From the NCBI GenBank assembly GCA_965228735.1, contig OZ245838.1, positions 6,592,001 through 6,656,000 on the forward strand: 64,000 bases of DNA. Reading direction: 5' to 3'. Source of the stretch: Planctomycetota bacterium (GTDB lineage Bacteria; Planctomycetota; UBA1135; UBA2386). Of this stretch, positions 767 through 32,675 are shown piece after piece (positions within the stretch are counted from its first letter, which is position 1; the number at the start of each line of letters is the position of its first letter). The notes under the pieces are model-generated. The model saw only the letters and a program-made list of their open reading frames with translations, ran no database searches and was not told the DNA's origin. Both the position numbers and the translations under genes were made by a program.

Positions 767-2563
767 CTACTTCTCGGACAGGCAGTAGAGGCTCTTGTGC
801 CCGCGCAGGTAGATTGCGTCGCCGAGGATCACCGCGCTCGCGTCGAACGCGTCCGCCAGTTCGTTCGTCGCGACCTCTTCGAACGTGTGGCCGGCCTTGA
901 AGACCTTGGTCTGGCCTTCGCGCGACGTGACGTAGACGTGGCCGTTGGCGCCGACGGGTGACGCGTAGACCGTGCGCAGGCCGCCGAGGCGCTGGCCTTC
1001 GTAGTGCACCTCGCCGGTCTTGGCGTCGACGCAGGTCAGCACCGCGTTGTTGACGCGCAGGAAGTAGATGTCGTCGCCGTAGAGCAGGGCCGACGGCACG
1101 TACGACGTCGCGCGCGTGTGCTGCCACAGCACGTGCTCCGAATCGGTGAGATCACCGCGCGCGCCCGGCAACGCGACGGCCTGTAACATCGCGCCGCGGA
1201 ACCCGCTCATGAGGAACGCAACGTCGTCGCGGATGATCGGCGTCGGGATGGTGTTCACCGTCATGCCACCGAGCTCCCAGATTACCTTGCCCGTCTGCAG
1301 GTCGTAGCCGCGCGAGGCGGTGGTCGCGTTGATGATGATCTGCGGCTTGCCATCGACCTTCGTGATGACCGGCGTGGACCAGCTCGTGACCTCGTCGCGG
1401 TCCTGCTTCCAGAGCTCCTTGCCCGTGCGCTTGTCGAGCGCCGCGATGAACGACTGCTTCTCGTGGTCCCAGTTGATCACGACGATATCACCCCAGATCG
1501 CGGGCGAACTGCCCTCGCCGAACTGGTTGCGCGTCCGCATGTAGCCGTAGTCCTTCGACCAGAGCACCTCGCCCTTCATGTCGAGACAGTGGATGCCGCG
1601 CGAGCCGAAGTGAGTGTAGATCCGTTCGCCGTCGGTGATGGGCGAACCCGAAGCCTGCGAACCCGTCGAGTGGCCGCGCTCGTGCGGTACGGTGCGCGCG
1701 ACGCTCGTGCTCCAGGCCGTCGAACCGTCCTTGCGATCGAGCGCCATGACGCGGAAGTCGAAGACCTTGGTCAGCGGCTCCGGGGGGCGGCGGCCGCGGC
1801 GACCGCCGCGGCCGCCGCGGCCCGCGCCGTCGCCGATCGGTTCGAGCTCGGGCGCCTCGCCGTCCTCGTCCGTCTCGATGGCCGTCGTGAGGATGATGTG
1901 ATCGCCCCAGACGATCGGCGTCGCGTGGCCGAGGCCCGGCACGTCGACCTTCCACCGCACGTTCTCGTTCTCGCTCCAGGTCAGCGGCGGCGTCGTGCCC
2001 GGGGCGGCGCCGGACCCCTCCGGGCCGCGCCAGAACGCCCAGTTCTTGCTGCCGCCCTGCTGCGTGGTGGCGGCCTGCGGCACCGGATCCTGCTGGGTCT
2101 CTGCGGCCTTCGCCGGCATGCGCTCGAGGTGGCCGAACATGTGACCGCCGTAGCTCTTGCCCGACCAGACGCCGGCGTAGCGGTCACCGTGGAAGACCAC
2201 GCGCGCGCTGTAGGTGCCGAGCATCGGGAAGCCGACGTCGGTGACCTGGATGGTCGGCGTGTCGCCGGCCCACAGCACGTTCGCGCCGACGGGTAGCGTC
2301 ACGTCCTTGCCGTCGTAGCGGATCGTCGCGTCGATCTTCCACTTCTCGTCGCGCAGCTTGGTCGCCTTCTCGATGAGATAGGTCTCGGGCCGCGGCGGCC
2401 CGTCGTTGCCGTCGACGGTGAACCGGCCGACCATCTTGCAGCGGGACATGCGCTTCGCGAACGCGGCCTCGCGCGCGGCCTGCTCGGCGTCGTCCGACTG
2501 GGCGGACAGGAGGGCGGGCGAGAGAGAGAACGCGACGAGCGAAGCGATGGCGTGATACTGCAT
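767..2563 (-). CDS. Exported PQQ/BamB-like beta-propeller protein with an extra N-terminal beta-rich domain
   Basis: Signal peptide; NWAFWRGPEGSG motif; repeated W..SSP/TP blades; C-terminal 'ASAVILGDAIYLRG..LYCL'. Confidence 0.85.
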   Translation of the reverse strand: MQYHAIASLVAFSLSPALLSAQSDDAEQAAREAAFAKRMSRCKMVGRFTVDGNDGPPRPETYLIEKATKLRDEKWKIDATIRYDGKDVTLPVGANVLWAGDTPTIQVTDVGFPMLGTYSARVVFHGDRYAGVWSGKSYGGHMFGHLERMPAKAAETQQDPVPQAATTQQGGSKNWAFWRGPEGSGAAPGTTPPLTWSENENVRWKVDVPGLGHATPIVWGDHIILTTAIETDEDGEAPELEPIGDGAGRGGRGGRRGRRPPEPLTKVFDFRVMALDRKDGSTAWSTSVARTVPHERGHSTGSQASGSPITDGERIYTHFGSRGIHCLDMKGEVLWSKDYGYMRTRNQFGEGSSPAIWGDIVVINWDHEKQSFIAALDKRTGKELWKQDRDEVTSWSTPVITKVDGKPQIIINATTASRGYDLQTGKVIWELGGMTVNTIPTPIIRDDVAFLMSGFRGAMLQAVALPGARGDLTDSEHVLWQHTRATSYVPSALLYGDDIYFLRVNNAVLTCVDAKTGEVHYEGQRLGGLRTVYASPVGANGHVYVTSREGQTKVFKAGHTFEEVATNELADAFDASAVILGDAIYLRGHKSLYCLSEK

Positions 2564-2672
2564 GGCGAGATCGGCTCCTTGAGGCGATCCGGTGTACCCC
2601 TGGGGGGCGCCAGCGGAAGCGCCGCTGGCCGAGTCGGCAAGGGTTACTTACTTTCGACAGCTCGCGGCCCGT

Positions 2673-3947
2673 TCACCGCCAGGCGAACGCGGCGAGCCCC
2701 TGCAGGCCGCGCACGAAGACCTGATCGCCGTCGACCGCGAGATGGGCCCAGGTCTCCTCCTCCGCGACCTCCATCCGGCTCTCGATCTCGAGCTCCTCGG
2801 TGTTCGCGCGGATCATCAGCAGTTCGCCGGAATCGGTCAGCGCGAGCATGCGATCGCCCCGAGCGACGATCGACCAGTAGGTGTCCCCGAGCGGTTCGCT
2901 GATCCACGCGACCTCGCCGGCGGCGAGGTCGACGCAGCAGAAGCGCTTGCTGCGCAGATAGAGATACGCGTGGCCGTCGATCACGACCGGTGACGTCATG
3001 TTGCCCTGCGCGCGGTTCGTCCACGCCTGCTCGACCTGCATCGCCGGCGCGCCGTCGCCGCCCTCGGCGTTCTTGCTGACCGCGAAGTAGTGCGCGCGGC
3101 CGCCGTAGGCCGACGTGAACACGCCGTCGCCGAACGGCAGGGGCGTGAGGATGTTCATGCCGCGGAACGACTTGATGTCGACGCCCCAGAGCTCGTCACC
3201 TGTCTCGAGGTCGACGCCCGACAGTCGGGTTCGGCCCTGCACGATGATCTGCTCCTGACCGGCGATCGTCGCGATCACCGGCGAGCTGAACGCGCCCGCG
3301 TTCATCATGTTGTTGCCGTCGTCAGCGAGCCCGCGCCAGACCGACTCGCCGGTCGCGGCGTCGAGCTTGATCAGGCCGGCGGCGGTGTGCACGTAGACCG
3401 CGCCGTCGTGGACGAGGGGCGAACAGACGAAGCCGAACGGCTGCTTGGGCGTGCCGTAGCGACCCTTGAAGTCGACGCGCCAGTGTTCGTTGCCGGTCGG
3501 GGCATCGAGGCAGACGAGCACGTCGAGCATGCCGGCGACGTAGAGCCGATCGCCGTGGAGCGCCGGCGTCGCGCGGATCCACGAACCGTTGCGGGCCGCG
3601 AAGAACGGCACCTTCATCGCGCCCTCCCAGGTTGCCTCCCAGACCTTCTCCCCGGTCTTGCGATCGATGGCCCAGACGCACTCCTCGAACTGGTCGAGCG
3701 TCGCGGTCGTGTAGACCCGCTCGGCGTCGCACACGGGGCCCGAGTAGCTCTCGCCGAGCTCGACGTGCCACTGCCGTTGCAGGGTCTCCTTCGCCAACTG
3801 CTCGGGCCACTCGGCGCCGGCCGCTTGACCGTCGCGGGCCGGGCCGCGCCATTGGTTCCAGTGGTCGCCCTGGGCAGCAACGGCGGCGGTCAGAGCGAGG
3901 GCGAAGACGACGGCGGGGAGGACGAGGCGCGGGGTCGCGAGTGGCAT
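2673..3947 (-). CDS. Exported PQQ/BamB-like beta-propeller protein
   Basis: Start reassigned to ATG at 3947 (MPLATPRLV.. signal peptide); HWNQWRGPARDG motif and propeller blades. Confidence 0.85.
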   Translation of the reverse strand: MPLATPRLVLPAVVFALALTAAVAAQGDHWNQWRGPARDGQAAGAEWPEQLAKETLQRQWHVELGESYSGPVCDAERVYTTATLDQFEECVWAIDRKTGEKVWEATWEGAMKVPFFAARNGSWIRATPALHGDRLYVAGMLDVLVCLDAPTGNEHWRVDFKGRYGTPKQPFGFVCSPLVHDGAVYVHTAAGLIKLDAATGESVWRGLADDGNNMMNAGAFSSPVIATIAGQEQIIVQGRTRLSGVDLETGDELWGVDIKSFRGMNILTPLPFGDGVFTSAYGGRAHYFAVSKNAEGGDGAPAMQVEQAWTNRAQGNMTSPVVIDGHAYLYLRSKRFCCVDLAAGEVAWISEPLGDTYWSIVARGDRMLALTDSGELLMIRANTEELEIESRMEVAEEETWAHLAVDGDQVFVRGLQGLAAFAWR

Positions 3948-4009: not shown

Positions 4010-7000
4010 CTATTCGGCGTGCAGGGCCCGGAGCAGCTGCCCCCGGGTCGCCAGGGCGCTCGCCAGGACGACCCAGAACGCGCCGCTGAGCGCGATCAGC
4101 GCCACGAAGCCGAGGAGCGGCCCGATGGCGACCGGGTCGGGCGACCGGACGACCGGGACGATCGCGAGGCCTGCCGCCACGAGCCCGGTGAGGAGGCCGA
4201 GGCCCAGCAGCAGCCCGTGTTCGCTCACGACGAGTCGGCGCACGTCCCGGCTCGAGAAGCCGACGGCCTGCAGGGTCGCGAGCTCGGCGCGGCGTTCGAG
4301 CGTGTTGCGGAGCACGACCACGCCGAGCCCGACCGTGCCGAGCAGCAGGCCGAGGCCGCCGAGCAGCTGGAAGATCGCGAGGTAGGTGTTCTGCACGGCC
4401 TGGAACGCGGCGAGCCGGTCGGCGGACTTCGTGAGCTCGAGTCCGAGGTCCGCCAGCGCGCGCGACAGCGACGTCGCGACCGCGTCCGCGCGTTGGGCAT
4501 CGGCGTCGACGAGGAACATGCGGAACCCCGTCGCCGACGGGAATCGTTCCCGCAGGTGCCGATCGGCGATGACGAGATTGCCCTGCAGGATCGAATCGCT
4601 CACCGTCGCGACGATGCGCACGTCGAACTCGTTCCCGGCCTCGTCCCGGTAGCGCAGCGCATCGCCGACGGCCTTGTGCAGGCTCCACGTCACGCTCGCG
4701 GCGTCGCCGATCGCCGGCACGACGTCGGGTCCGAGGTCCCGGTCGAGCAGTCGCCACGGGTTGTCGTCGCCCGCGTCACCCGTGACCGCGAACCGGAAGG
4801 CCTCGCGTTGCGCCAGCTGTTCCGGCTCGACGCCGACGAGCCGCGGGCTTTGCGGCGTGCTGAGGTTGAGGCAGCTGCCGTCGTCGCCGTCCTTGACGCG
4901 CAGCGGCACGATGCGTGCGCCCTGCAGATCGTCGTCGTCGAGCGCGTAGGCGTCGCGTCCGGCGGTGGTCGCGAGATCGCGCAGCACCGGCAGCGACGAG
5001 CGGCCGAACAGCGCGAACCCGCCCGTGCCCGACGCGCGCACGCTCGGATCGGTCGGCGGCTCGAGCCGGTTGCTCTGGACGGCGACGACGAGGAACGTGC
5101 CGCTCGCGAGCAGCGCGATCGTCGTGAGGCTCCGACCCGTGCGGCGCGAGCTGTTGCGCACGCCGAGCGCGGTGATCGTCGGCAGGCCCGCCGTGCGTTT
5201 CGCGGCGTGGCGCAGCAGCAGGTGGCGCGATGCGAAGATGCCGGCGATGAGCACGAGCGCACCCGCGCCGAAGAACGTGCCGGCGGTCGCGGCCGAGCTC
5301 GACCCTGCGGTCATCACGAGCGTGATCGCGCCGGCGAGTGCGATGACGGCGAGCCCGAGGCTCAGTCCACGCGGGCCCCGGGCACCGGGTCGTGCCGTGG
5401 GCGCCAGCGTACCGTCGCCCTGCAGCAGTTCGACGGCCGGCCGCCGGAACGCGCGGCGCAGCGTGAGCAGGATCGCGAGCAGCGCCGCGACGACCGCACC
5501 GATCGCGCCGCCCACGATCGAGCCCGGGACGAGGTGGGCCGTGAGCGTCGTCTGGCCGACCGCGTCCTGCCACAGCGACCCGAGGCCGGCGAGCACGGCG
5601 TGGGCGTAGCCGATGCCGAGCAGGGCGCCGAGCGTCGCGCCGACGCCCGCGAGCAGCAGTGCTTCGCGCACGAACAGGCCGCGCACCCTGCCCTCCGTGA
5701 AGCCGACCCCGAGCAGCAGGCCGACTTCGCGCCGGCGCTGTTCGACCCCGAACACGAACAGCAGCGCCGTGAGCATGAGCCCGGCGATGACGAGGAAGAA
5801 GCTCAGTCCGAGGAAGAGGCCGCCGAAGTCGGTCGCCGGCGAGCCTGCGGCGAGTGCCGGGCCGCGCAGGTCGCGGAAGAACAGCCCGAGTGCTTCGGGA
5901 TCGAGCTGCTGCGCGAGCTCGGTGCGCACGCGCGCGGCGGCCGGCGCGCTGAGCCGGATCGCCGTGAGGTTGCCGAACCGGTTGCCGAAGAGCCGCTGCC
6001 CGGCGGCGAGCCCGAGGAACGCCTTGGGCGTGCCGCGGTGTTCTTCCCAGTAGGCCTGGTCCTCGCCATCGAGCCGGTCGAGTTCGACCGGGATGCCCGG
6101 CTCCCAATCGCCGCAGCTGCGCGCTTCGGCGAGGCCCGGGAACGCCGGCATCAGAGCCGGGTCGAGCGCGGCATTCGCGAGCTCGACGATCGCGCTGACG
6201 CGCATCGTGTGGGTGCGTTCGTCGAGCTGCAGCTGCTCGTCCATGACGTAGTAGCTCAGCACGAGCTCGGCGCCGGGCTCGGCGCCGATGTCCTTGGCGA
6301 GCCAGTCGTGGATCACCAGCTCGTCGCCCTCCGGCGCGAGACTCGCGGTCGCGGCGAGCGGCGCTGCGGGAGCGGTCGCCGGGTCGAGCGGCCCGAGTGC
6401 GGTCACCGTCGAGTACGGCGTCACGCGTTCGCCGGCCGCGATCGAGTTCACGAAGTAGGTGAGGATCGCCAGGCCGTCGGGCGCGATGGCGCGAACGGTG
6501 TCGCCGATCGCGGGATCGAGGAAGACGCGGCCGCTCGTCAGCGCGTGGATCTCGGGGTTCGTCGCGCTGCCGTCGAGGTCGGCCGGGATCGGGCCGAGCT
6601 CGAGCTCCGCGTCCGCGAGGGTCCAGTGGGTGCGCAACGCCCGGTCCGCGGCCGCAGGCGTCGCATCGATCGCGAGCAGGTTGGCGCGGTCCTCGAGTTC
6701 GAGCTCGGCGTTGAGCCACGCCCGGTCGAGGAACACGTTGAACGGCGGCACCTGGCTCGCCCGCAGACCGAAGCGGCCGAACTCGTCGTCCTGCAGCACG
6801 CGGTCGACGGTGACGCGCAGCGCGAACGCGACGTCGTCGACGGTCGCCATCGTGGCCTCGCGCGGCATGAGGCTCGGACGCTCGACGCGCACGACGAACT
6901 CGTCGCCGGCGTCGATCTGCAGCTGGCGCGCGAGTCGCACGTTCACGAACGCGCGGCCAGGTGGGATCGCGGTGACCGCCGATGCCCGGGCTGGCGCCAT

Positions 7001-7375
7001 CGCGAAGAAGCGTGTGTCCACGCCGTAGACGTCGACGAGACCGGTGCGCAGTTCGGTCGGCCCCTGTTCGTTGCCCTTGCGGCGGCTGGTGGCCACGCCC
7101 GGCAGCTGCACGATCGGCGCGCACGTGCTGCCCTCGATCGCGGCTGCGATCCGATCCGCGAGCGCGACCGTGACGAACCGGTCGCCCGCGGTCAACGCCG
7201 CGTCGAACCCGCCGATCCGTTGCAGTGCCTGCTCGCGCAGGCTGAGCCGTACGGAGTCGCCGACGGTGAGCGCGCCGACGAGCACGGTCGCGGCACACAG
7301 CACGCCGAGGACGACCCCGACTTGGGTGCGCCAGTAGTGCCGCAGGCTGGCCTTCGTCAGGCGCCAGGCATTCAT
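4010..7375 (-). CDS. Large MacB/FtsX-family ABC transporter permease (two FtsX repeats)
   Basis: N-terminal TM, large periplasmic domain, 'EQRRREVGLLLGVGF' and 'ERRAELATLQAVGF' FtsX motifs. Confidence 0.9.
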   Translation of the reverse strand: MNAWRLTKASLRHYWRTQVGVVLGVLCAATVLVGALTVGDSVRLSLREQALQRIGGFDAALTAGDRFVTVALADRIAAAIEGSTCAPIVQLPGVATSRRKGNEQGPTELRTGLVDVYGVDTRFFAMAPARASAVTAIPPGRAFVNVRLARQLQIDAGDEFVVRVERPSLMPREATMATVDDVAFALRVTVDRVLQDDEFGRFGLRASQVPPFNVFLDRAWLNAELELEDRANLLAIDATPAAADRALRTHWTLADAELELGPIPADLDGSATNPEIHALTSGRVFLDPAIGDTVRAIAPDGLAILTYFVNSIAAGERVTPYSTVTALGPLDPATAPAAPLAATASLAPEGDELVIHDWLAKDIGAEPGAELVLSYYVMDEQLQLDERTHTMRVSAIVELANAALDPALMPAFPGLAEARSCGDWEPGIPVELDRLDGEDQAYWEEHRGTPKAFLGLAAGQRLFGNRFGNLTAIRLSAPAAARVRTELAQQLDPEALGLFFRDLRGPALAAGSPATDFGGLFLGLSFFLVIAGLMLTALLFVFGVEQRRREVGLLLGVGFTEGRVRGLFVREALLLAGVGATLGALLGIGYAHAVLAGLGSLWQDAVGQTTLTAHLVPGSIVGGAIGAVVAALLAILLTLRRAFRRPAVELLQGDGTLAPTARPGARGPRGLSLGLAVIALAGAITLVMTAGSSSAATAGTFFGAGALVLIAGIFASRHLLLRHAAKRTAGLPTITALGVRNSSRRTGRSLTTIALLASGTFLVVAVQSNRLEPPTDPSVRASGTGGFALFGRSSLPVLRDLATTAGRDAYALDDDDLQGARIVPLRVKDGDDGSCLNLSTPQSPRLVGVEPEQLAQREAFRFAVTGDAGDDNPWRLLDRDLGPDVVPAIGDAASVTWSLHKAVGDALRYRDEAGNEFDVRIVATVSDSILQGNLVIADRHLRERFPSATGFRMFLVDADAQRADAVATSLSRALADLGLELTKSADRLAAFQAVQNTYLAIFQLLGGLGLLLGTVGLGVVVLRNTLERRAELATLQAVGFSSRDVRRLVVSEHGLLLGLGLLTGLVAAGLAIVPVVRSPDPVAIGPLLGFVALIALSGAFWVVLASALATRGQLLRALHAE

Positions 7376-8082
7376 CGCGGTTGGCCCGCGGGTGCTGCGG
7401 CCCCGGCGAGGACGCCGTCACGCAGTTCGATCGCGCGACTCATCCGGTCGGCGAGGCGGCGCGAGTGGGTGACGACGAAGAGCGCCACGTCGTGTTCGCT
7501 GTTGAGCTCGACGAGTAGCTCGCCGAGTCGGTCGGCGCCGCGCTCGTCGAGCGACCCCGTCGGTTCGTCCGCGAGCAGCAGGCGCGGCCGGTTGACGAGC
7601 GCGCGCACGACGGCGACGCGTTGGCGTTCGCCGCCCGAGAGCTCGGCCGGGCGGTGATCGAGTCGGTCGCCGAGTCCGACGTCGTTCAGCAGCGCCCGGG
7701 CGCGGTCGGGCGCGGCCTTGCGTACCGCGGTATCGGACAGCGCGAGCGTCGGCACGAGCACGTTCTCGAGCGCCGTGCACTGCGGCAGGAGGTGGTGCGA
7801 TTGGAACACGAAGCCGATCTCCCGGCTGCGCAGCGCGGCGAGTTCCTTCGCCGACAGTTCGCCGAGATCGCGGCCGTCGAACCGCACCGTGCCGGTGCTC
7901 GGCGGCAGCAGCCCGCCGATGAGGTTGAGCAGCGTGCTCTTGCCGCAGCCGGACGGCCCGAGCACGGCCACCGACTCGCGCGCCGCGATCGTGAGGTCGA
8001 CCCCGCGCAGCACCTCGGTCGTGGGGCCGAACGTCCGCGTCGCGCGCTCGACCTCGACGAGTGGCCGGTCGGCGGTCGTCAT
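7372..8082 (-). CDS. ABC transporter ATP-binding protein (LolD/MacB type)
   Basis: Walker A GPSGCGKS, signature LSGGERQRV, LADEPTG; ATG at 8082 overlaps the upstream stop. Confidence 0.93.
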   Translation of the reverse strand: MTTADRPLVEVERATRTFGPTTEVLRGVDLTIAARESVAVLGPSGCGKSTLLNLIGGLLPPSTGTVRFDGRDLGELSAKELAALRSREIGFVFQSHHLLPQCTALENVLVPTLALSDTAVRKAAPDRARALLNDVGLGDRLDHRPAELSGGERQRVAVVRALVNRPRLLLADEPTGSLDERGADRLGELLVELNSEHDVALFVVTHSRRLADRMSRAIELRDGVLAGAAAPAGQPR

Positions 8083-15673: not shown

Positions 15674-15675
15674 CG

Positions 15676-21495: not shown

Positions 21496-21644
21496 GGGGA
21501 GCATGGAACGGGGCGTGGGGGCAGATGGCACGAGGTTTCGCAACAGTTGACCCACAAGTTACTTGCCCACGACGTATGGGCCGGTCGAGCGCTCGGGGTC
21601 GGGTGCGTGGCGAGGGCGCTCGGGAGGCTGTTACGGCCGTTCGC

Positions 21645-24315: not shown

Positions 24316-25580
24316 CTGCGTTCACCTTGGGGCCGGCCGAGCGCCAGCAGTTCGGTCTCGGTGCGAATGTAGAGGCGGTCGTGCGCGATCGCAGGCGTCG
24401 CGCAGGTGGGGCTGCCGAGGTCGAGCTCGCCGAGCGGCGTGTGCTCGTCGCCGGTCGCCGAGAACGTGCGCAGCGTGCCGGCGCGGTCGCAGACGAAGAT
24501 CGTCTCGCCGTTGGTCACGGGCGAGCTGAAGTAGCGCGCGTCGGTGCGTTCGCGCCACAGCTCGTCGCCGGTGTCGGCCTGCAGACACACGGCGTAGCCG
24601 CTGTCCGAGAACCAGAAGTAGCGCTGGCCGATCGCGATCGCCGCCGGCACGTAGGGCAGGCCGCGGCGCGGGCGATACGCGATCGCGGGCTCGGTCGCGC
24701 CCGCCTTGCCGAGGTCGAACACGGCGCACTCCTTGCCGGCGTTGCCCGCACCCGTGTTGACGAACAGGCGGTTGCCGCAGCGGGTCGGCGTCGCGATGAA
24801 CCGGTACTTGAAGCCCGGGTCGGCCTGCCAGCGCAGTTCGCCGGTCGCGGGTTCGATCGCCGTGAGCCCGTGCGCCGAGCTGGCCACGAGCAGGAACGGA
24901 TCGCCCGTCTCCGGTTCGAACAGCAGCGGCGGCGAATACTGCGCCCAGCGCGCGTTCGCCTCGCGATCGATCCGCCAGACCGGTTCGCCCGTCTTGCGAT
25001 CGAGCGCCGTGAGGAAGCTGTCGGGGCCCTGGTTCTCGTTCGCGATGATGACGAGATCGCCGCACAGCACGGGCGCCATCGCGCTGCCGTGGTTGCTCTT
25101 GAACGTGCCGAGCACGTGGCGCCACGCCTGCTTGCCGTCGTGATCGAACGCAGCCGCGACCAGGTCGGCGCCGTCGGTCCACAGCCCGTAGACCGCGTCG
25201 GCGTCGCAACACATCGTCGCGCTCGCGAAGTTGTTGAGCTTGTGCTGGTCGTGGGCCTCGAACTCGCGGCCCGCCGTCCAGAGTTCGTTGCCGGAGTCGG
25301 CGTCGAAGCACACGACGGCTCGGGTCGAGCCGACGATCCGGGTCAGGAACACGCGCTTGCCCCAGAGAACGGGCGAGCTGTGGCCGACGCCGCGGAGTTC
25401 GGCGCGCCAGCGGATGTGTTCGGGCGTCAGGTCGCCGGGCAGGTCGAGCTGGCCGTGACCCTGGCCGCCCGGCCCGCGGAAGCGCGGCCACTCCTGCGCG
25501 GTCGCGCGTCCCGAGACGGCCGCCGCGAAGACCGCGGTCGACGCCGCGAGCAGAACTCCGAGAACGCGGTCTCGCATCAT
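24312..25580 (-). CDS. Exported PQQ/BamB-like beta-propeller protein
   Basis: Start at ATG 25580 (ATGA overlap); QEWPRFRGPGGQG; blades. Confidence 0.88.
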   Translation of the reverse strand: MMRDRVLGVLLAASTAVFAAAVSGRATAQEWPRFRGPGGQGHGQLDLPGDLTPEHIRWRAELRGVGHSSPVLWGKRVFLTRIVGSTRAVVCFDADSGNELWTAGREFEAHDQHKLNNFASATMCCDADAVYGLWTDGADLVAAAFDHDGKQAWRHVLGTFKSNHGSAMAPVLCGDLVIIANENQGPDSFLTALDRKTGEPVWRIDREANARWAQYSPPLLFEPETGDPFLLVASSAHGLTAIEPATGELRWQADPGFKYRFIATPTRCGNRLFVNTGAGNAGKECAVFDLGKAGATEPAIAYRPRRGLPYVPAAIAIGQRYFWFSDSGYAVCLQADTGDELWRERTDARYFSSPVTNGETIFVCDRAGTLRTFSATGDEHTPLGELDLGSPTCATPAIAHDRLYIRTETELLALGRPQGERR

Positions 25581-27031
25581 TTCGCCCCGAGCTTGTAGAG
25601 GTGTTCGTCGGTGCGCAGCCAGATGCTGCCGTCGACGAGCGCCGGCGTCGCGAAGCACGTCTCGCCGAAGTCGGCCTCGTGCAGCACCTCGAGCGTGCCG
25701 GCGCGCAGCACCGTGAGGATGCCGGCCTCGCTCAACAGGTAGACCTTGCCGTCGCCCGCGACCGGCGCGGTGAAGTAGGCATCGCCCGCGTGCCCGACCC
25801 GTTCCTTCCCCTGCAGTTCACCGCTCTCGGCATCGAGCGCGGTCACGAGGCCGCCCTGGTCGGCGGCGAGGTAGTAGGTGCCGCCAGTGACGAGGGGCGA
25901 CGGCAGCTGCGGGATGGAGCGGTAGTACTGCCACAGCACGTTCTCGTCGGTCATGTCGCCCTCGCCGCCGACCTTGACGGCGATCGCGCAGTTGACCGCG
26001 GCGAGCGACAGTCGCAGGAGGTGCCACTCGCGCGCGTCGAGCACCTTGTCACGGTTGCTGTCGACGAAGCCGGCGTAGCCGCGCGCCCGCCGGTCCGTGA
26101 GCTCGGCGGCGTCGATCTTGCCGTTGTCGTTGCTGTCGAACTGTTCGAGCGCCGCCTCGAACTCGGGCAGGTCGAGCTGCCGGCCCTTGTTGTTGATCGG
26201 GCTCGCGAAACCGTGGATCCAGAGCGTGTCGTCGAGCAGCACGGGCACCGACTTCATCTCGCCCGCGAGGCCGCGGATCCACCACACGCGCTTGCCGGTC
26301 TGCACGTCGTAGGCGTCGAGCAGGAACGAGCCCGCGAGGATGAACTGCTTGGCCCCGCCGTCCGGCTGCCACAGGACCGGCGTGCAGTGGCCGCTCACGG
26401 CGTCGGGTCGCGCGGTCTTCCAGAGCACCTTGCCGCTGTGCTTGTGGATGCCGAGCACGTAGCTGTCGACGCCGTCGTCGCACGGCACGATCGCGACGTC
26501 GTCGATCAGGATCGGCGACGCGCCCATGCCGTACGCGTTGTGGAACGGGCCGAGCGGCAATCGCCAGCGTTCGTTGCCGTCGTGGTCGTAGGCGAGCGCG
26601 CCGAACTCGTCGAAGAACACCACGACGGTGTCCGCGTCGACCGCCGCTGATGCCGCGGCTGGACCGTTCTTGCCGTGAAACTTCGTCTCGCGTTCCCGCG
26701 GTGCCTCCTGCTGCCACACGGTTTCGCCGGTCGCCCGATCGACCGCGATCGTCCAGAGCTTGCCGTCTTCGAACGCCGTGAGGAACAACCGCGTCGGACT
26801 GAACGTCGGTGAGCTGTGACCCGGCGGGAATGCGCGCTTCCAGATCACGTTCCGTTCCGGCCCGACCTCGGCCGGATACGTGCCGCCAGTGGCGAGCCCG
26901 GTGCCGTTCGGGCCGCGGAACATGTTCCATGGCGAGGTGCCGTCTTGAGCGGCACCGTCCTGGGCGCCGAGCGTGGCGAGCATCAGCAGGGCGGTGATCG
27001 GCGGCAGGGCGCGGCGCGCGAGCGAGATCAT
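25577..27031 (-). CDS. Exported beta-propeller protein with an inserted EF-hand pair
   Basis: PWNMFRGPNGTG; loops DSNDNGKIDAAE and DSNRDKVLDARE. Confidence 0.88.
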   Translation of the reverse strand: MISLARRALPPITALLMLATLGAQDGAAQDGTSPWNMFRGPNGTGLATGGTYPAEVGPERNVIWKRAFPPGHSSPTFSPTRLFLTAFEDGKLWTIAVDRATGETVWQQEAPRERETKFHGKNGPAAASAAVDADTVVVFFDEFGALAYDHDGNERWRLPLGPFHNAYGMGASPILIDDVAIVPCDDGVDSYVLGIHKHSGKVLWKTARPDAVSGHCTPVLWQPDGGAKQFILAGSFLLDAYDVQTGKRVWWIRGLAGEMKSVPVLLDDTLWIHGFASPINNKGRQLDLPEFEAALEQFDSNDNGKIDAAELTDRRARGYAGFVDSNRDKVLDAREWHLLRLSLAAVNCAIAVKVGGEGDMTDENVLWQYYRSIPQLPSPLVTGGTYYLAADQGGLVTALDAESGELQGKERVGHAGDAYFTAPVAGDGKVYLLSEAGILTVLRAGTLEVLHEADFGETCFATPALVDGSIWLRTDEHLYKLGAK

Positions 27032-27115: not shown

Positions 27116-27547
27116 TTACGACAGGCGCTCGGCGGGCACGGCCTCGATCGCCGCGTCGATCGCGGGCGGCATCGCCACGGCGCGCAGCGTGCCGTCCGCG
27201 GTCTTCTCGATGCACACCGCCGTGATCGTGCCGCGCGCGACCTCTTCGCCGGCCAGCAGGAACCGCGTTTCGTAGACGATCGCCTTGCTGCGCTTCTCGC
27301 GCACCAGCAGGTGCAGTTCGACCTCGTCCTCGTAGCGCAGGGGCCGCTTGTAGTCGCACGTGGCGTTGCGACGGGCCCAGCCGAACGCCGCGGTCCGAAC
27401 GTCGCCGTGCACCGAGTAGCCGAGCGAGCGGAAGAACGCGTGCTCCGCCTCTTCCATGTACCGGAAGTAGTTGGAGAAGTGCAGGATCCCGGCCATGTCG
27501 GTCTCGGCGAACGTCACCGACCGTCGCATTCGGAACTCACTCGCCAT
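27116..27547 (-). CDS. Hotdog-fold acyl-CoA thioesterase (YbgC/4HBT family)
   Basis: 'FAETDMAGILHFSNYFRYMEEAE' and 'CDYKRPLRYED'. Confidence 0.9.
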   Translation of the reverse strand: MASEFRMRRSVTFAETDMAGILHFSNYFRYMEEAEHAFFRSLGYSVHGDVRTAAFGWARRNATCDYKRPLRYEDEVELHLLVREKRSKAIVYETRFLLAGEEVARGTITAVCIEKTADGTLRAVAMPPAIDAAIEAVPAERLS

Positions 27548-27553: not shown

Positions 27554-28864
27554 TCACGCGTAGCGCACGGCGCGGTGTTCGGCCGGAAAGAACTCGTGCA
27601 GCAGCCGGTCGATCTCGAGCATCGCCGCGCGCCGCACGGTGATCGCATCGCCGCTCACCTCGAAGTGGCCATCAGTGACGTGCTTGTCGAGCGCCCTGCC
27701 GAACCGCTGCGTGACCTCGACGCCGAACTTGCTGCGGAAGTAGCCCGCGTCGACCTGGCCGAGCTTGAGCTGCAGGATGAACTCGCGGATCAGCCGCTGG
27801 TCGTCGTCGAGCGGCAGCGCGCGATGGATCGGCAGCTCGCCGGCCTCGACGCGCTCGACGTAGGGCAGGAAGTCGTGCTCGTTCTGGAAGTGGATGCCGC
27901 CGACGTGCGAGAACGACGCGACGCCGAGCCCGAGCAGGTCGGCGCCGTGCCACAGGCCGTCGCGGTAGAGGAACTGCGCGTCGCCGCGCTTGGCCGTGTA
28001 GGCGCTGCCGATCGTGTAGCCATCGGCCTCGAGCGCGCGGAACGCCTCGTCGACCCAGCGCCGCTTGGTCGCCCAGTCGGCGACGGGGGCCACCTCCTCG
28101 CCGCTGTCCTTCATCCGGCGCGCGACCGTCGTGTTGAACGGGATCTCCATCTGGTAGATCGTCACGCTGTCGGGCTGCAGCTCGATCGTGCGTTCGATGC
28201 AACGTTGCCAGTTGTCGTCCGTCTCGCCGATCATGCCGGCGATCAGGTCGATGTTGATCTGCGGGAAGCCGACGTCGCGCGCGGTTCCGTAGGCCTTGTC
28301 GATCTCCTTGGCGCGGTGCGCGCGGTTGTTGCGTTCGAGGATCTCCGGATCGAAGTTCTCGACGCCGAGCGACAGCCGCGTGATGCCGAGGTCCTTCAGC
28401 GCCTTGATCTTCTTCTCCTGCAGCGTGCCCGGCTCGCACTCGAACGTGATCTCGCGCGCGGCGTCCCACGGCAGGTGCTCCTGGATGCCGGCGAACAGCT
28501 CGGTGAGCTGATCGACCGACAGATAGCTCGGCGTGCCGCCGCCGAAGTAGACGAAGTCGATCGGGCGCCCGGCGACCGCGGCCTGCTGCGCGTAGGACTT
28601 CGCCTCCTGCACGACCGCGCTCGTGTAGCGCCGGACCTCGTCGCTGTTCTTGTCCGTGTAGACCCGGAAGTAGCAGAAGTCGCAGCGCTTCCGGCAGAAC
28701 GGGATGTGGACGTAGAGCCCGAACGGGGTGCCCGGATCCGGCGGCTCGGCGAAGCGCGCGCGAGCAGCGGTGGCGTGCTCGGGCCGCCACACCGAGAACG
28801 GCGGATAGTTCGCGACGAAGTAATTCCCCGTCGTCGTGCTGTTGGCTTCGGAGTCGGAGGCCAT
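27554..28864 (-). CDS. HemN-like radical SAM enzyme (possible class C methyltransferase-type)
   Basis: LYVHIPFCRKRCDFC (CxxxCxxC), YFGGGTPS, RLSLGV, NIDLIAG, GLGVASFS, HemN C-terminal domain. Confidence 0.88.
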   Translation of the reverse strand: MASDSEANSTTTGNYFVANYPPFSVWRPEHATAARARFAEPPDPGTPFGLYVHIPFCRKRCDFCYFRVYTDKNSDEVRRYTSAVVQEAKSYAQQAAVAGRPIDFVYFGGGTPSYLSVDQLTELFAGIQEHLPWDAAREITFECEPGTLQEKKIKALKDLGITRLSLGVENFDPEILERNNRAHRAKEIDKAYGTARDVGFPQINIDLIAGMIGETDDNWQRCIERTIELQPDSVTIYQMEIPFNTTVARRMKDSGEEVAPVADWATKRRWVDEAFRALEADGYTIGSAYTAKRGDAQFLYRDGLWHGADLLGLGVASFSHVGGIHFQNEHDFLPYVERVEAGELPIHRALPLDDDQRLIREFILQLKLGQVDAGYFRSKFGVEVTQRFGRALDKHVTDGHFEVSGDAITVRRAAMLEIDRLLHEFFPAEHRAVRYA

Positions 28865-28996: not shown

Positions 28997-29893
28997 CTAT
29001 CGCGGCACGCCGAACGGCAGCGCATCGAGCGCCGAACCGGGCAATCGGTGGATCGTGTACGCGAGCCCGGGCCGCACCTGGGTCGCCGTCGAGATCGGGA
29101 TGCCGAGGAAGCGGGTCGTCGTCGTGCTGCCGACCTCGGTCGGGACGTAGCCGCGGAAGACGCCGATGACCTCGAGGCGTTCGGTCTTCGCGTTCCAGAG
29201 CATCGCGGGGCCGCCGGACATGCCGCCGAGCTCGAAGTGGCCGCCCGCGGCGAACCAGTGGCGGGCGCCCGGGTCGGTGTCGCGGATCGTGGCCGGGATC
29301 GACGGTGCCCGCGCGGTGTGGTCGACGCGTTGGTCTTCGAAGAACCCGGCCGCGTAGCCGACGAGGAGGACTTCGTTGCCGACCTCGGGCCGCCAGTTCG
29401 CGGCGCGCGCCGGGGCGTGGATGGGGGCGATCGCCGTCCAGCGCGGCGCTGCCGCGCGCAGGATCACCCAGTCGCCGTGCGGGGTCTCGGGGTCGCCGGA
29501 TGCGACGACCGTGACCGCGACCTCCTCGCCGGCAACTCGCAGCGGGACCGTCTGCTCGACGTCGGTCGGCGTCGTGCGCGTCATGTGGGCCGCGGTGAGC
29601 AGGTGATCCGGCGCGATGATCGTCGCCGTGCCCTGGGTTCGCGCCCGCAGGTTGACGATCGCGACGACGGGCGCGAGATCGGTGTCATTCACGTGCTCCG
29701 GCGTCCGGTCGGCGAACCGGGTCGCGAGCGGCGGATACGCGCCCGCCGCGCTGCCGGGGCCGGTCGCACACGCCGTTGGCAGCGTCAGGGCCATGGCAAC
29801 GGCCAGGGCGGCGGCCAGGGCAGGGGTCAGAGCAGGGGTCAGAGCGACGGCTACGGAACCGGACCGACCAGCGCGACGGACGAACGGGAACAT
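28997..29893 (-). CDS. Trypsin-like serine protease, probable lipoprotein (start uncertain)
   Basis: LTAAH, GDWVIL, GMSGGP triad motifs; LPTAC lipobox-like. Confidence 0.75.
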   Translation of the reverse strand: MFPFVRRAGRSGSVAVALTPALTPALAAALAVAMALTLPTACATGPGSAAGAYPPLATRFADRTPEHVNDTDLAPVVAIVNLRARTQGTATIIAPDHLLTAAHMTRTTPTDVEQTVPLRVAGEEVAVTVVASGDPETPHGDWVILRAAAPRWTAIAPIHAPARAANWRPEVGNEVLLVGYAAGFFEDQRVDHTARAPSIPATIRDTDPGARHWFAAGGHFELGGMSGGPAMLWNAKTERLEVIGVFRGYVPTEVGSTTTTRFLGIPISTATQVRPGLAYTIHRLPGSALDALPFGVPR

Positions 29894-29957: not shown

Positions 29958-31193
29958 ATGAGCGCGCCCGGTGAGGAGCCAGATTTCGATGTCGTCGTGA
30001 TCGGCGGCGGGCCCGCGGGTGCCGCCGCCGCCGCACTCGTCGCCGCGCAAGGGCACAAGACCGCGCTGTTCGAACGCCAGTCGTTCCCGCGCTTCCACGT
30101 CGGCGAATCGCTCGTGCCGGCCGTGAACCAGACGCTCGATCGACTCGGCCTCCGGGGTCGGATGGACGAACTCGGCTTCGTGCAGAAGCATGGCGTGCAG
30201 TTCTACACGCCGAACGGGCCGAGCCGACCGTTCTACTTCAGCGAGGTCGACGATCCGGCGCTGCACAACACGTGGCAGGTCCACCGCAGCAAGTTCGACG
30301 CGATGCTGCTCGAGCACGCGCAGAACCGCGGCGTGCACGTCGAGACCGACACCCCGGTCGTGCATGCGCTGCGCGACGGGCCCGCTGTGACCGGCGTTCG
30401 CGTGCGGCATCTCGACGAGAGCGAGCAGAACGTGCGCGCTCGCATCGTGCTCGATGCGTCGGGGCAGAAGGGCATCGTCGCGTCCGACCTGACGCAGCAT
30501 CAGGGCGTGCCGGGGCTCGAGAACACGGCCGTCTACGCCCACTACCGCGACGTGCCGCTCGATCCGGGCAAGGACGCCGGGTCGACGCTGATCTATCGCC
30601 TCGACGCGCGATCGTGGATCTGGTTCATCCCGCTCGAAGGCGTCGTGAGCATCGGCCTCGTGACGTCGGCGCGCGAGATCCTGCGCTTCGGCCAGGACCG
30701 CAACGCGATCCTCGACACCGCGATCGCGCAGTCGGAGCACCTGAGCGAACGGCTGCAGTCCGCCACGCGCGCCGGTGAGGTCCGGGTTGCGCGCGACTTC
30801 AGCTACCGCGCCCAGCGCGACGGGGGGCCGGGTTGGGCCCTCGTCGGCGACGCGCTCGGCTTCATCGATCCGGTCTATTCGACCGGGCTGCTGCTCGCGA
30901 TGAAGGCGGCGGAGACCGCCGCGCTCGAAGTGACGTGTCGGCTCGCGAGCGACGCCGCGCACCCGGACATGCAGGGCTTCTCGGCGCCGTGGCAGCAGTC
31001 GTTCGACCGCTTCCTGCCGCTGGTCCGCGCGTTCTACACGGAGGACTTCCGCTTCGGCGAGGTCAGCAAGGAGCCCGCGCACCGCAAGGGCCTCGTCGAT
31101 CTGCTCACCGGGCTGACGGACACGCAGGAGGCCATCGACGTCACCGAATTGATACGCCGGCTGCTCGGTGACGAGGTGACGGCGGACTCGTAG
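29958..31193 (+). CDS. Flavin-dependent halogenase-like oxidoreductase
   Basis: GGGPAG FAD motif, FPRFHVGESL, GFVQKHG (conserved Lys), WIWFIP (WxWxIP), GDALGFIDPVYSTG. Confidence 0.82.
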   Translation: MSAPGEEPDFDVVVIGGGPAGAAAAALVAAQGHKTALFERQSFPRFHVGESLVPAVNQTLDRLGLRGRMDELGFVQKHGVQFYTPNGPSRPFYFSEVDDPALHNTWQVHRSKFDAMLLEHAQNRGVHVETDTPVVHALRDGPAVTGVRVRHLDESEQNVRARIVLDASGQKGIVASDLTQHQGVPGLENTAVYAHYRDVPLDPGKDAGSTLIYRLDARSWIWFIPLEGVVSIGLVTSAREILRFGQDRNAILDTAIAQSEHLSERLQSATRAGEVRVARDFSYRAQRDGGPGWALVGDALGFIDPVYSTGLLLAMKAAETAALEVTCRLASDAAHPDMQGFSAPWQQSFDRFLPLVRAFYTEDFRFGEVSKEPAHRKGLVDLLTGLTDTQEAIDVTELIRRLLGDEVTADS

Positions 31194-31196
31194 AGT

Positions 31197-32675
31197 GTGG
31201 TCTCCCCTTCCCGGAGACCAACGTTGCGCCATCCCACGTCGACTCTCGTTCGTTCGTTCGCTTTCCTGACGCTGATCGGCAGCGTTGTTGCCGGCCTCCT
31301 GCCCGCGCAGGATTGGCCGCATTGGCGCGGTCCCGAGTACGACGGTTCGACGACCGTGACCGGACTGCCCACGACGTTCTCCAGGACCGAGAACGTGAAG
31401 TGGCAGACGGCGATGCCCGGCCCGGGTGCGAGCACGCCGATCGTCGTCGGCGATCGCATCTACCTCACGTCGGTCGACAGCGAGCGCGAGCGGCTCGTCG
31501 CCATGTGCCTCGATCGCAAGAGCGGCGAGGTCGTCTGGCAGCACGATGCGGGCAGCGGCTACAAGGAGCGCGAGGGCGCCACGCGAATCGCTCGCGGCAG
31601 CCGCACGCGGGCGACGTTCGCGTGCCCGTCGGCCGTGACCGACGGCGAGCACGTCGTGTTCTTCTTCGGCAACGGCGATCTCGTCGCCTACCACTGTCAG
31701 GGCGAGAACGACGGCGCCGAGGCCTGGCGCCGCAACGTGCAGGCGGACTACGGCAACTTCGCGTTCAACTGGACGTTTTCCGCGAGCCCGACGTACCACG
31801 ATGGCCTCGTCTATCTGCCCGTTCTGCAGCGCGACGAGCCGATCCAGCGGCGGCGCCGCGGGGGGCGCGGTCGGCGCGGGCCGCAGGACGGGGGCGCGGA
31901 CGGCGAGCAGCCGGCGGAGGCGAAGCCGCCGGCGATCGACTCGTTCCTGCTCGCGATGGACCCAGCGACCGGCAAGACGGTGTTCAAGCACGTGCGGCCG
32001 TCGCCCGCCAAGGTCGAGTCGCTCGAGTCCTACACCTCACTCATTCCGTACACCGACGCGGACGGCAACGCACAGCTGTTGCTCGCGGGCGGCGACGTGC
32101 TCACCGGCCACGACCCGAAGACGGGCGCGGAGCTCTGGCGCTGGGGGACCTGGAACGAAGGTCACCGCGAACGCTTCTGGCGGCTCGTGCCGAGCGTCGT
32201 CACGGGGTCCGGCATGGCCCTGGTCTGCGCGCCGAAGCGCGCGCCGGTCTACGCCATCCAGCTCGGCGGGAAGGGCGAGCTGCCGAAGGAAGCGTGCGCG
32301 TGGCAGAGCGAGGGCCGGCCGAACCCGGTCTCGAGCGATGTGCCGACGCCCGCGTTCGAGGGCGGCGCGTTCTACGTGCTCTCCGACGTGCGCGCGGCGC
32401 TGTCGAAGGTCGACGCCAGGACCGGCAAGGTGCAGTGGACGACGAACCTGCCGAAGGAGCACCTCTGGCGCGGTTCGCCGACGGTCGCGGATGGCAAGGT
32501 CTACTGCATGAACCACAACGGCCTCGTCGTCGTCGCCGACTGCGACACCGGCGAGATCGCGCACCAGGTCGCGATGGGCGACGAAGGCGACGACCACACG
32601 CGCAGCACGATCGTCGCCGCGCACGGCGCGCTGTTCATCCGCACGAACGGCGCGCTCTACTGCCTCGCGCGGTAA
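31197..32675 (+). CDS. Exported PQQ/BamB-like beta-propeller protein (start may be slightly downstream)
   Basis: Signal peptide, QDWPHWRGPEYDG, blades, C-terminal 'GALFIRT..LYCL'. Confidence 0.88.
   Translation: MVSPSRRPTLRHPTSTLVRSFAFLTLIGSVVAGLLPAQDWPHWRGPEYDGSTTVTGLPTTFSRTENVKWQTAMPGPGASTPIVVGDRIYLTSVDSERERLVAMCLDRKSGEVVWQHDAGSGYKEREGATRIARGSRTRATFACPSAVTDGEHVVFFFGNGDLVAYHCQGENDGAEAWRRNVQADYGNFAFNWTFSASPTYHDGLVYLPVLQRDEPIQRRRRGGRGRRGPQDGGADGEQPAEAKPPAIDSFLLAMDPATGKTVFKHVRPSPAKVESLESYTSLIPYTDADGNAQLLLAGGDVLTGHDPKTGAELWRWGTWNEGHRERFWRLVPSVVTGSGMALVCAPKRAPVYAIQLGGKGELPKEACAWQSEGRPNPVSSDVPTPAFEGGAFYVLSDVRAALSKVDARTGKVQWTTNLPKEHLWRGSPTVADGKVYCMNHNGLVVVADCDTGEIAHQVAMGDEGDDHTRSTIVAAHGALFIRTNGALYCLAR

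Follow-up and report, generated by a model that had tools for sequence, protein, structure and literature searches.

A conserved operon with exchangeable front ends tracks a family of exported beta-propellers in Planctomycetota

RESULTS

A 23-gene region links small-molecule enzymes to exported propellers

Within a 64,000-nucleotide stretch of the Planctomycetota contig OZ245838.1 (assembly GCA_965228735.1; this whole stretch is called the window), positions 767 to 32,675 hold 23 genes in which ten exported beta-propellers, P1 to P10, are interleaved with transporters and small-molecule enzymes. Genomes that carry this system also carry a large family of WPxxRG-type propellers that is absent from the other genomes tested, and the enzymes of the window belong to one of two front ends that alternate near-exclusively with oxygen lifestyle. 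Both front ends accompany a shared hub of a giant FtsX-type ATP-binding cassette (ABC) transporter, the propeller P3, and usually a GT4 glycosyltransferase with an N-terminal CGxC motif. The interpretation we favor, with a probability of roughly 0.4, is that both front ends feed reductant to the hub, which would service the propellers, and that in the window genome this would occur through a halogenated hydroxybenzyl shuttle.

The region lies in a single-contig genome of 7.19 Mb (93% complete, 69% GC), and its genes have their closest named relatives in Planctomycetota. Nine of the 22 gene junctions overlap by 4 to 8 nt, another four are spaced by 8 nt or less, and 10 of the 24 strong propeller genes in the genome (E<1e-20) fall inside these 32 kb, where about 0.1 would be expected. 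An original prediction, made from the letters of the window, had described ten interleaved and often overlapping exported propeller genes among enzymes, an importer, and ABC genes, all of which were recovered at their positions (Table 1). The image of a propeller array holds for this clustering, but the array is not a recent one: pairwise identity among the window propellers is only 21 to 34%, which rules out recent tandem duplication and indicates old, separately conserved subfamilies.

Operon order is conserved in several phyla

The EhpF-like adenylating enzyme of the region, part of a putative carboxylate reductase, was used as a query against 301 Planctomycetota genomes, the same set used for all co-occurrence counts below. 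Matches in 104 genomes fell into 71 close (E<1e-60, at least 52% identity) and 33 distant (29 to 37% identity) cases. Synteny was sampled at 24 close-class reductase loci in 23 genomes, using neighborhoods of 40 kb. Twelve of these loci keep most of the order P5-P4-DUF3311-SSS-GriC-ALDH-ADH-P3-radical SAM-halogenase-GT4-thioesterase-DMT-ABC (SSS, sodium:solute symporter; ALDH, aldehyde dehydrogenase; ADH, alcohol dehydrogenase; SAM, S-adenosylmethionine), five are rearranged or reduced, and seven, of which five belong to family f8, retain no more than the reductase gene, alone or together with ALDH and ADH. Additional genes in the loci of relatives encode a chorismate-lyase-like protein, a PaaK-like ligase, a MarR regulator, sometimes a TonB receptor, and a terpenoid module.

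Conservation of operon order extends to at least five phyla, the named loci coming from Verrucomicrobiota, Armatimonadota, Acidobacteriota, and Omnitrophota beside Planctomycetota, although such labels may be wrong for metagenome-assembled genomes (MAGs). Among 80 P4 loci, many on short contigs, P5 adjoined in 74 and the reductase in 46. Pattern scans of a species-level genome collection gave estimates of ~3,900 (P4), ~3,500 (GT4), and ~2,200 (the wire ferredoxin described below), which count stretches and not genomes. Several acidobacterial loci (L160, L162, L171, L174, L163, L165, L168, and L170) have P5-P4-ADH-P3 without a nearby reductase, or P5-P4 alone, and an ankyrin-repeat gene recurs beside some of the reductase-less P5-P4 loci in this phylum.

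The distant EhpF-like class was ruled out as part of the system, as none of the system's genes occurred in the 10 neighborhoods examined (loci L086-L097; genomes G180, G101, G275, G130, G086, G018, G108, G243, G044, and G210). The class was found in 33 of 301 genomes, with 20 of 23 in family f30, and it lies in a conserved cluster of another kind that, labeled by reading, includes genes for a short-chain dehydrogenase/reductase, an MMPL-like exporter, a class III aminotransferase, a U32-peptidase-like protein, and multiheme and cytochrome b proteins. This looks like a separate undescribed system.

Propellers are present in all system genomes tested and absent from the others

The CGxC GT4 was found in 100 of the 301 genomes, including all 71 with a close-class reductase, and the radical SAM enzyme in 70, all of them inside those 71. 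Both accompany the reductase in 24 of 24 family f8 genomes, and in those examined the genes are scattered. An SHC-like cyclase was found in 77 genomes, 71 of them GT4 positive, and the six others all have propellers and the hub permease. The GT4 is therefore ruled out as a universal marker by these 6 system genomes, and GT4 and cyclase together mark 106 system genomes.

Propellers were counted with a profile built from seven of the window propellers (E<1e-30), scoring at most 59 or 43 candidates per genome and including operon propellers in the totals. In a first comparison, 16 of 16 GT4-positive genomes had 4 to 32 matches, versus zero matches in 15 of 16 GT4-negative genomes; the one GT4-negative genome with matches carries the cyclase module along with the permease, P3, and wire genes. 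A second comparison used 44 GT4-negative genomes, comprising the first 40 that had not yet been tested and 4 chosen for their cyclase. No match occurred in the 39 without a cyclase, versus 3 to 29 matches in each of the 5 with one, and the permease and the wire marker were both present in all five of these cyclase-positive genomes. In total, WPxxRG propellers occurred in 22 of 22 system genomes (3 to 32 matches) versus 0 of 54 others. Because kin are not independent, Fisher values exaggerate the association, and splits within families are the better evidence: in f1, genome G121 had 12 matches versus 0 in four sisters; in f2, counts of 4 to 15 stood against six genomes with 0; and in f22, a count of 9 stood against two genomes with 0. 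The original prediction had named a lack of co-occurrence or synteny in other genomes as the outcome that would speak against a link between enzymes and propellers; synteny in several phyla and the all-or-none propeller distribution both connect the two.

Two front ends alternate with oxygen lifestyle

The reductase is missing from 35 of the 106 system genomes. GT4-positive genomes of this kind have a sister operon with the order P3-GT4-ABCa-ABCp-Px-W1-W2-W0-Px-W3-W4, in which the wire proteins are a NuoEF-like flavoprotein (W3), a NuoG/GltD-like protein (W4), a membrane Fer4_5 polyferredoxin (W0), a ferredoxin (W2), and an anchored NHL protein with an invariant GCCNP motif (W1). Within 10 kb of 80 named W2 loci were W1 (79), W0 (77), a client propeller (77), W3 (57), and the permease (33). 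Titles of these loci include Anaerohalosphaeraceae, Thermogutta, Verrucomicrobiota, Lentisphaeria, Bacteroidota, Calditrichota, and Marinimicrobia.

The front ends were compared in a constant panel of system genomes, 30 without the reductase and 50 with it. W1 was present in 28/30 of the former versus 5/50 of the latter, P4 in 7/30 versus 50/50, a UbiC-like gene in 0/30 versus 36/50, and a heme-copper oxidase in 8/30 versus 49/50. The Fe-S chain thus replaces the reductase in 28 of 30 genomes, as it does in 5 of 5 tested in the further set, and the propellers were kept wherever this was checked. These distributions identify the window enzymes as the aerobic front end (front end A) of a machine that is run with an electron chain in anaerobes. 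Strain ZRK34 carries an intact front end A (locus L108). What both front ends visibly have in common is consumption of NAD(P)H tied to the envelope, which is why delivery of reductant to the hub is the interpretation we favor.

The hub

The single-chain hub permease has about 10 predicted membrane helices, two large periplasmic domains, and an invariant periplasmic cysteine, Cys835. It was present in 47 of 50 system genomes versus 0 of 30 others, and in 4/4 and 5/5 genomes of further sets; the three system genomes without a match are MAGs of 100 to 410 contigs. LolC and LolE are separate permeases of ~400 amino acids (aa), unlike this 1,121-aa protein with two FtsX domains, and the partner ATPase reaches 244 of the 308 bits required by the LolD model. 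In 14 GT4 sequences, C15, G16, C18, E339, and E347 are invariant, so that the E-x7-E motif is intact and the CGxC is an addition to it. P3 adjoins the GT4 and ABC genes in both system types. A fused peptidylprolyl isomerase (PPIase) domain is found on P3 only in this genome and its closest relatives, and P3 is ~380 aa elsewhere. At one locus, a radical SAM protein of the PF19864 type lies between GT4 and ABC genes (L246:11230-13278), and a second radical SAM type lies beside the cyclase in two GT4-less genomes (L300:7872 and L305:8682).

Enzymes of front end A

The adenylating enzyme aligns over its full length with EhpF, and its gene overlaps that of an ALDH-fold protein that keeps the catalytic cysteine. 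In this partner C290 and N166 are invariant, and His254 occupies the position that, by motif assignment, is the general-base Glu of hydrolytic ALDHs, a replacement that fits an acyl reductase. By gene criteria the pair would be a GriC/GriD-type aryl-carboxylate reductase. GriC is reported to form an acyl-AMP, from which GriD produces the aldehyde by reduction (PMC10179220).

The flavoprotein has GxGxxG, WxWxIP, and Fx.Px.Sx.G motifs together with K77 in 13 sequences, using motif definitions from PMC12645471 and assigning K77 as the catalytic Lys by alignment to PDB halogenases. Its ten best PDB matches are nine halogenases and one unnamed flavoprotein, and QhpG- and LodB-type hydroxylases are also matched below cut-off. 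In the radical SAM protein the CxxxCxxC cysteines are invariant, and the strongest likenesses are to HemN (E 2e-38) and NocN (E 7e-29). It falls below the curated cut-offs for HemN (196 of 325 bits), HemW (174 of 205), and ChuW-HutW (179 of 400), and is a candidate class C-type enzyme with a putative role in C1 transfer to an sp2 carbon. The small membrane protein was present in 24 of 80 GT4 loci. The prediction had called it a DMT-like exporter; the label rests on its four predicted membrane helices and finds no backing in Pfam or NCBIfam, where the protein has no match.

Operons of relatives point to a substrate. The chorismate-lyase-like gene and PaaK-like ligase that they add suggest 4-hydroxybenzoate and lend weight to the predicted logic of an imported acid reduced to an alcohol. 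The chorismate-lyase-like protein has no Pfam match; it matches PDB 2NWI (E 6e-4), which we take to be DUF98, and the Atlas clusters found for it (0.94-0.95) have PF04345 on 15 to 19% and PF01947 on 11 to 15% of members. A UbiC-like gene is absent from the window genome according to a model that does match other genomes. The one PaaK-like gene of the window genome was not counted as the missing ligase, as it sits among acyl-CoA catabolic genes.

As predicted, Pfam and NCBIfam searches of the 23 genes returned no polyketide synthase, nonribosomal peptide synthetase, or terpene genes. Neither pqqC nor, above cut-off, pqqE was found in the 93%-complete genome, in a weak search whose pqqC control matched nowhere. 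No candidate precursor of a ribosomally synthesized and posttranslationally modified peptide was seen, in that 24 plus 160 neighborhoods held no conserved unexplained open reading frame (ORF) of at least 60 aa inside the operon, the smallest size searched.

Client propellers share a signature and lack a common pocket

All ten window propellers have a signal-peptide-like N terminus by eye, and eight of them vary in number and position among genomes. PDB sequence searches with the propellers returned generic fold members only, and the Atlas returned only unnamed BamB-family clusters. Scores remain below the cut-offs of the pyrroloquinoline quinone (PQQ) dehydrogenase models TIGR03075 (at most 82 of 480 bits) and TIGR04528 (at most 61 of 650 bits) and of the BamB model TIGR03300 (at best 140 of 285 bits).

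From 624 hits, 469 near-full-length sequences were kept and thinned to 291 representatives below 60% identity. Common to these 291 are an N-terminal W-P-x-x-R-G-P, structural G/W/D/P positions, and four Cys columns (64 to 84%). None of them revealed a universal polar residue on the top face or in the pocket, and every His column is below 30%. Each client subfamily has its own conserved loops and face, with subfamily-specific pocket residues. This pattern argues against a single cofactor that all clients bind alike and favors a docking or thiol feature common to them, and neither the subfamily alignments nor the 291-sequence alignment supports a universal cofactor pocket. The original prediction had proposed that the pathway product serves the propellers as ligand or cofactor. 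For the family as a whole this is weakened on two counts: no pocket is shared, and the 35 of 106 system genomes that lack the reductase retain propellers wherever these were checked, so that the aromatic product is not what all propellers need. The proposal may still hold for the core propellers P4 and P5.

P4 has an invariant polar loop set (K133, D141, W142, H222, N223, H248, H283, W286, QDPEH at 376-380, R405, W447, and E462). An AlphaFold2 model of P4 is confidently all beta (pLDDT 83.9, pTM 0.87); the invariant polar residues, four His among them, map to its inter-strand loops, and propeller topology would place them on one common face. The additional N-terminal domain of P1 has no Pfam match. 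Three dispersed clients outside the window, at G000:C1:4856000-4863700, adjoin a gene for what we take to be a Cys-rich exported peptide and another that is presumably DUF692-like.

A terpenoid module and a TonB receptor accompany some systems

In both system types the hub may be adjoined by a terpenoid module comprising an SHC-like cyclase with an intact DxDD motif, a prenyltransferase-fold protein, a DUF116-polyprenyl synthase, and a ferredoxin; a CobW-like GTPase or a radical SAM protein may be included (L067:11159-19159, L258-L259, L263, L267, L287, and L293). The cyclase module is missing from 29 GT4-positive genomes, that of the window included. In the window, a TonB-dependent receptor lies 13 kb outside the region and probably belongs to the system: relatives of it stand beside the operon in genomes G121, G268, and G010 and in 8 of 80 P4 loci, and orthologues occur in 5 of the 28 tested system genomes without a cyclase, both types being represented, versus 0 of 43 cyclase-bearing and 0 of 9 non-system genomes. 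With only 5 of 28, the receptor is ruled out as a general substitute for the module, and most cyclase-lacking genomes have no such receptor. Since the window genome has both the symporter and the receptor and no UbiC-like gene, import of a precursor is likely here.

Gene inventory and neighboring features

Coordinates are collected in Table 1. The trypsin-like gene is probably a passenger, having no counterpart in any operon neighborhood examined. Two intergenic inverted repeats resemble REP or MITE elements. One, at window positions 15673-15842, is a 170-bp element with three further genomic copies at 90 to 98% identity, and the other, at 28891-28975, belongs to a short palindrome family with ~60 genomic matches; as genome-wide elements, both were ruled out as system parts. 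A DNA repeat array or structured RNA was likewise rejected, as there was no Rfam match and the direct repeats are blade repeats inside propeller genes. Scans of the region for promoters and terminators gave chance-level results only.

Positions 33700-43857 hold a Tad/Flp pilus-like locus (secretin, pilin, prepilin peptidase, and CpaB/CpaE/CpaF/TadB-like genes, labeled from reading the sequences). The ORF at 2-736, which has no Pfam match, is presumably the C terminus of DnaX, and the genes after the TonB receptor (47894-48836) are presumably ybaB-recR. If these labels hold, the operon, Tad locus, and receptor would sit between normally adjacent genes, hinting at insertion or rearrangement.

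Table 1. Features of the region and the nearby receptor, in window coordinates
Feature	Position	Strand	Support or remarks
P1, exported WPxxRG-type PQQ_2 propeller with extra N-terminal domain, variable client	767..2563	-	PF13360 E 2e-21; subfamily shared with P7
P2, exported propeller, variable client	2673..3947	-	PF13360 E 6e-39
Hub: FtsX/MacB-type ABC permease, 1121 aa, single chain	4010..7375	-	PF02687 twice
Hub: LolD-like ABC ATPase	7372..8082	-	TIGR02211 244 bits (cut-off 308); overlaps permease start
Front end A: small membrane protein, 177 aa, four helices, putative small-molecule exporter	8079..8612	-	W15/Y18/H23/K38 conserved
Hub: GT4 glycosyltransferase, N-terminal CGxC	8654..9958	-	PF00534
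Hub: P3 propeller (ACSF4-like), fused here to PPIase domain	9962..12043	-	PF13570 249 bits (above cut-off) and Rotamase
Front end A: iron-containing alcohol dehydrogenase (Fe-ADH)	12040..13197	-	PF00465, PF25137; synteny
Front end A: GriD/EhpG-like ALDH-fold acyl reductase (putative), TTG start	13206..14636	-	PF00171 E 2e-23
Front end A: EhpF/GriC-like adenylating enzyme	14633..15673	-	EhpF PDB 3L2K, E 5.5e-44, residues 9-346
Front end A: sodium:solute symporter (SSS)	15836..17377	-	PF00474 E 7e-42; 44/80 P4 loci
Front end A: DUF3311 symporter accessory protein	17374..17658	-	PF11755; 40/80 P4 loci
Front end A: P4, core propeller	17655..19220	-	Alignment and AlphaFold2 model
Front end A: P5, core propeller, C-terminal beta domains	19213..21504	-	Invariant Arg 78, 131, 183, 212; adjoins P4 in 74/80 loci
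P6, exported propeller, variable client	21645..22928	-	
P7, exported propeller, variable client	22960..24315	-	
P8, exported propeller, variable client	24312..25580	-	
P9, exported propeller, EF-hand-like insert, variable client	25577..27031	-	
Front end A: 4HBT/YbgC-type thioesterase	27116..27547	-	PF13279; Asp17 invariant
Front end A: HemN-like (class C-type) radical SAM enzyme	27554..28864	-	C57/C61/C64 invariant
Trypsin-like protein, probably passenger	28997..29893	-	PF00089 E 1e-4
Front end A: flavin-dependent halogenase-type enzyme	29958..31193	+	GxGxxG, K77, WxWxIP, FxDPVxSxG
P10, exported propeller, variable client	31197..32675	+	
TonB-dependent receptor, outside the region; true start probably near 47650	45530..48547	-	PF00593 and Plug

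DISCUSSION

A possible mechanism and its alternatives

From the chemistry of the gene families, a shuttle can be proposed for front end A. 4-Hydroxybenzoate would be made by the UbiC-like lyase in relatives and, as the window genome has no such gene, imported there. It would be halogenated, probably as a CoA thioester, would receive a C1 unit from the class C-type radical SAM enzyme, and would be released by the thioesterase. The EhpF/GriC-GriD-type pair would then spend ATP and NAD(P)H to convert the acid to the aldehyde, and the Fe-ADH would produce the alcohol, making the aerobic carrier a halogenated, probably methylated hydroxybenzyl acid/aldehyde/alcohol. More tentatively, the small membrane protein could export the reduced form, P5 and P4 could reoxidize it outside, and SSS/DUF3311 could reimport the acid to close the cycle. 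The hub likely matures or services the exported propellers, and in the most speculative step the electrons might power a reduction by which it installs or activates a thiol-, metal-, or lipid-linked group on the clients. The Fe-S chain is predicted to do the same job in anaerobes. An importer and a probable exporter sharing one operon with the reductase speak for such a cycle. A more specific version is rather doubtful: the system would be a periplasmic low-potential electron route for a posttranslational maturation machine, acting on an orphan protein family that ranks among the largest in PVC and acidobacterial genomes, and would be served by an ATP-energized halogenated aryl shuttle in aerobes and an NADH-fed Fe-S wire in anaerobes, with the FtsX-type hub installing a new redox group that makes enzymes of dozens of propellers now annotated as BamB.

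Several observations weigh against reductant delivery by a shuttle. P4 and P5 have no recognized redox cofactor motif, no electron acceptor was identified, and the chemistry is read from gene families. The symporter is missing beside several operons (genomes G154, G252, and G277), and acidobacterial loci have P5-P4 only, or P5-P4-ADH-P3 without a reductase. Hub chemistry does not appear fixed, since 6 system genomes have no GT4, among them a 99%-complete genome in one contig, and 29 have no cyclase module. Nor is the exchange of front ends strict: both occur in 5 of 50 reductase-bearing genomes, 7 of 30 reductase-lacking genomes also have P4, and an oxidase is found in 8 of 30 wire-type genomes by a marker, PF00115, that also covers NO reductases. 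Related genomes are not independent samples, family f8 supplying 24 of the 71 close-class genomes. Finally, alternation with oxygen fits equally well if the front ends feed a biosynthetic step and there is no shuttle.

An alternative, doubtful in our judgment and close to the original prediction, is a cofactor or modification pathway. The GT4 would glycosylate a halogenated, methylated hydroxybenzyl alcohol, the ABC transporter would export it, and propellers would bind it or have it attached as a new quinone-like cofactor; anaerobes would reach this or a similar cofactor by another route using low-potential electrons. All-or-none co-occurrence with a large paralogue family recalls the pattern of PQQ and mycofactocin systems, the propellers have the quinoprotein fold in a genome where pqq genes were not detected, and the same TonB receptor with both system types suggests a salvageable molecule. 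Wire-type genomes, though, have no UbiC-like gene (0/30), reductase, or radical SAM enzyme, and so no visible route to the same aromatic, and the 291 propellers show no His column reaching 30%, no universal polar top-face residue, and only subfamily-specific pocket residues. An envelope lipid is an unlikely product: here the hub would glycosylate and extract, in Lol fashion, a cyclised polyprenyl or aryl-prenyl glycolipid, with propellers as BamB-like carriers or scaffolds and front ends supplying head group or reductant. The LolD-like ATPase is compatible with this, as are the terpenoid genes that adjoin the hub in both system types, the value of the cyclase as a system marker, and the restriction of the TonB receptor to cyclase-lacking genomes (5/28 versus 0/43). 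It is opposed by the window genome and the 28 other GT4-positive genomes that lack the cyclase module, by absence of the receptor as well from 23 of 28 tested, and by the difficulty of explaining up to 32 divergent carriers for one lipid.

Reductant delivery also has to be set against readings in which nothing is built for the propellers. They could be periplasmic hydrolases or binding proteins, with the cytoplasmic enzymes disposing of imported aromatic acids. PQQ-free enzymes of this fold exist (tetrathionate hydrolase and lambda-carrageenase; 6L8A and PF25292 were among the matches), importers are encoded, and the conserved face differs from one propeller subfamily to the next. We regard this as quite improbable: the halogenase, class C-type radical SAM enzyme, and ATP-driven acid reductase are biosynthetic, as is the chorismate-lyase-like gene, and free hydrolases would not vanish from every genome lacking one ABC permease. 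That a secondary-metabolite cluster merely lies by chance beside a propeller expansion is scarcely credible. Variation of 8 of the 10 propellers in number and position would allow it, but it is contradicted by overlapping genes, by an order that five phyla keep, by co-occurrence that persists when genes are scattered, and by the distributions of propellers and permease.

Significance and relation to known systems

Planctomycetes, Verrucomicrobia, and Acidobacteria encode up to dozens of PQQ-like propellers per genome, which are annotated as BamB or AfsK-like and remain unexplained. Tying such a family to one single-copy machine makes its function testable, as loss of the permease alone should disable all clients. 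If the front ends supply reductant, they would represent a new way of moving electrons across the membrane, together with a small-molecule shuttle, and a widespread halogenated aromatic metabolite is predicted in abundant soil and marine bacteria. The individual enzymes belong to known families, the system as a whole matched none of the known systems compared below, and the open literature, with subscription journals mostly outside its coverage, yielded no description of it; it is apparently a widespread undescribed envelope system.

Among planctomycetes, PMC10632474 lists 29 COG1520 paralogues of Planctopirus limnophila as bamB with no essentiality call. In its supplement 1, taken as the essential-gene figure, the labels COG0438 (2), COG0577 (1), and COG1657 (1) are present, and COG1520, 0635, 1454, 1541, 0644, 0824, 1012, 1852, and 0591 are not among them; both are hints only, as carriage of the system by P. 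limnophila is not shown. Halogenated hydroxybenzoates do occur in the phylum: in the baa locus for 3,5-dibromo-p-anisic acid of Planctomycetales strain 10988, a chorismate-lyase-like gene adjoins a flavin halogenase, BaaB, that is ~44% similar to Bmp5, and the passages available mention no reductase, radical SAM enzyme, or propellers (bioRxiv 10.1101/723874). The window halogenase is closest to CmlS/ChlB4/PltA types and differs from BaaB by description.

The GriC/GriD (grixazone) and EhpF/EhpG (D-alanylgriseoluteic acid) pairs resemble the window in having an EhpF-like enzyme whose gene overlaps that of an ALDH-fold protein with a catalytic Cys, the likeness to GriC, GriD, and EhpG being by description. 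They differ from it in that the window has no phenazine or phenoxazinone core genes and adds an Fe-ADH, propellers, an ABC hub, and a symporter. BamB and other COG1520 proteins have the same fold, whereas the window family is tied to an operon, is absent from 54 tested diderm genomes of the phylum, and reaches at most 140 of 285 bits against TIGR03300. In PQQ systems and other pairings of a cofactor with client proteins, such as mycofactocin, eight-bladed PQQ-type propeller clients likewise track a dedicated operon; the present system differs in having no detected pqq genes, clients below quinoprotein cut-offs with no shared pocket, two exchangeable front ends, and no precursor peptide among ORFs of at least 60 aa.

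Two further comparisons concern the architecture of the system. The nos and mau operons (NosR or NosGH, NosDFY; MauMN) combine a periplasmic propeller, an ABC transporter, and a Fer4_5 membrane polyferredoxin. The sister operon has the same combination, with another propeller family, many clients, an FtsX-type permease, and an aromatic pathway as the alternative. Sulfatases are matured by FGE in aerobic and by anSME in anaerobic settings. By analogy, and with no homology, one expanded exported family is served in both cases by oxygen-dependent or oxygen-independent helpers, which in the system described here are multigene reductive modules joined to an ABC hub.

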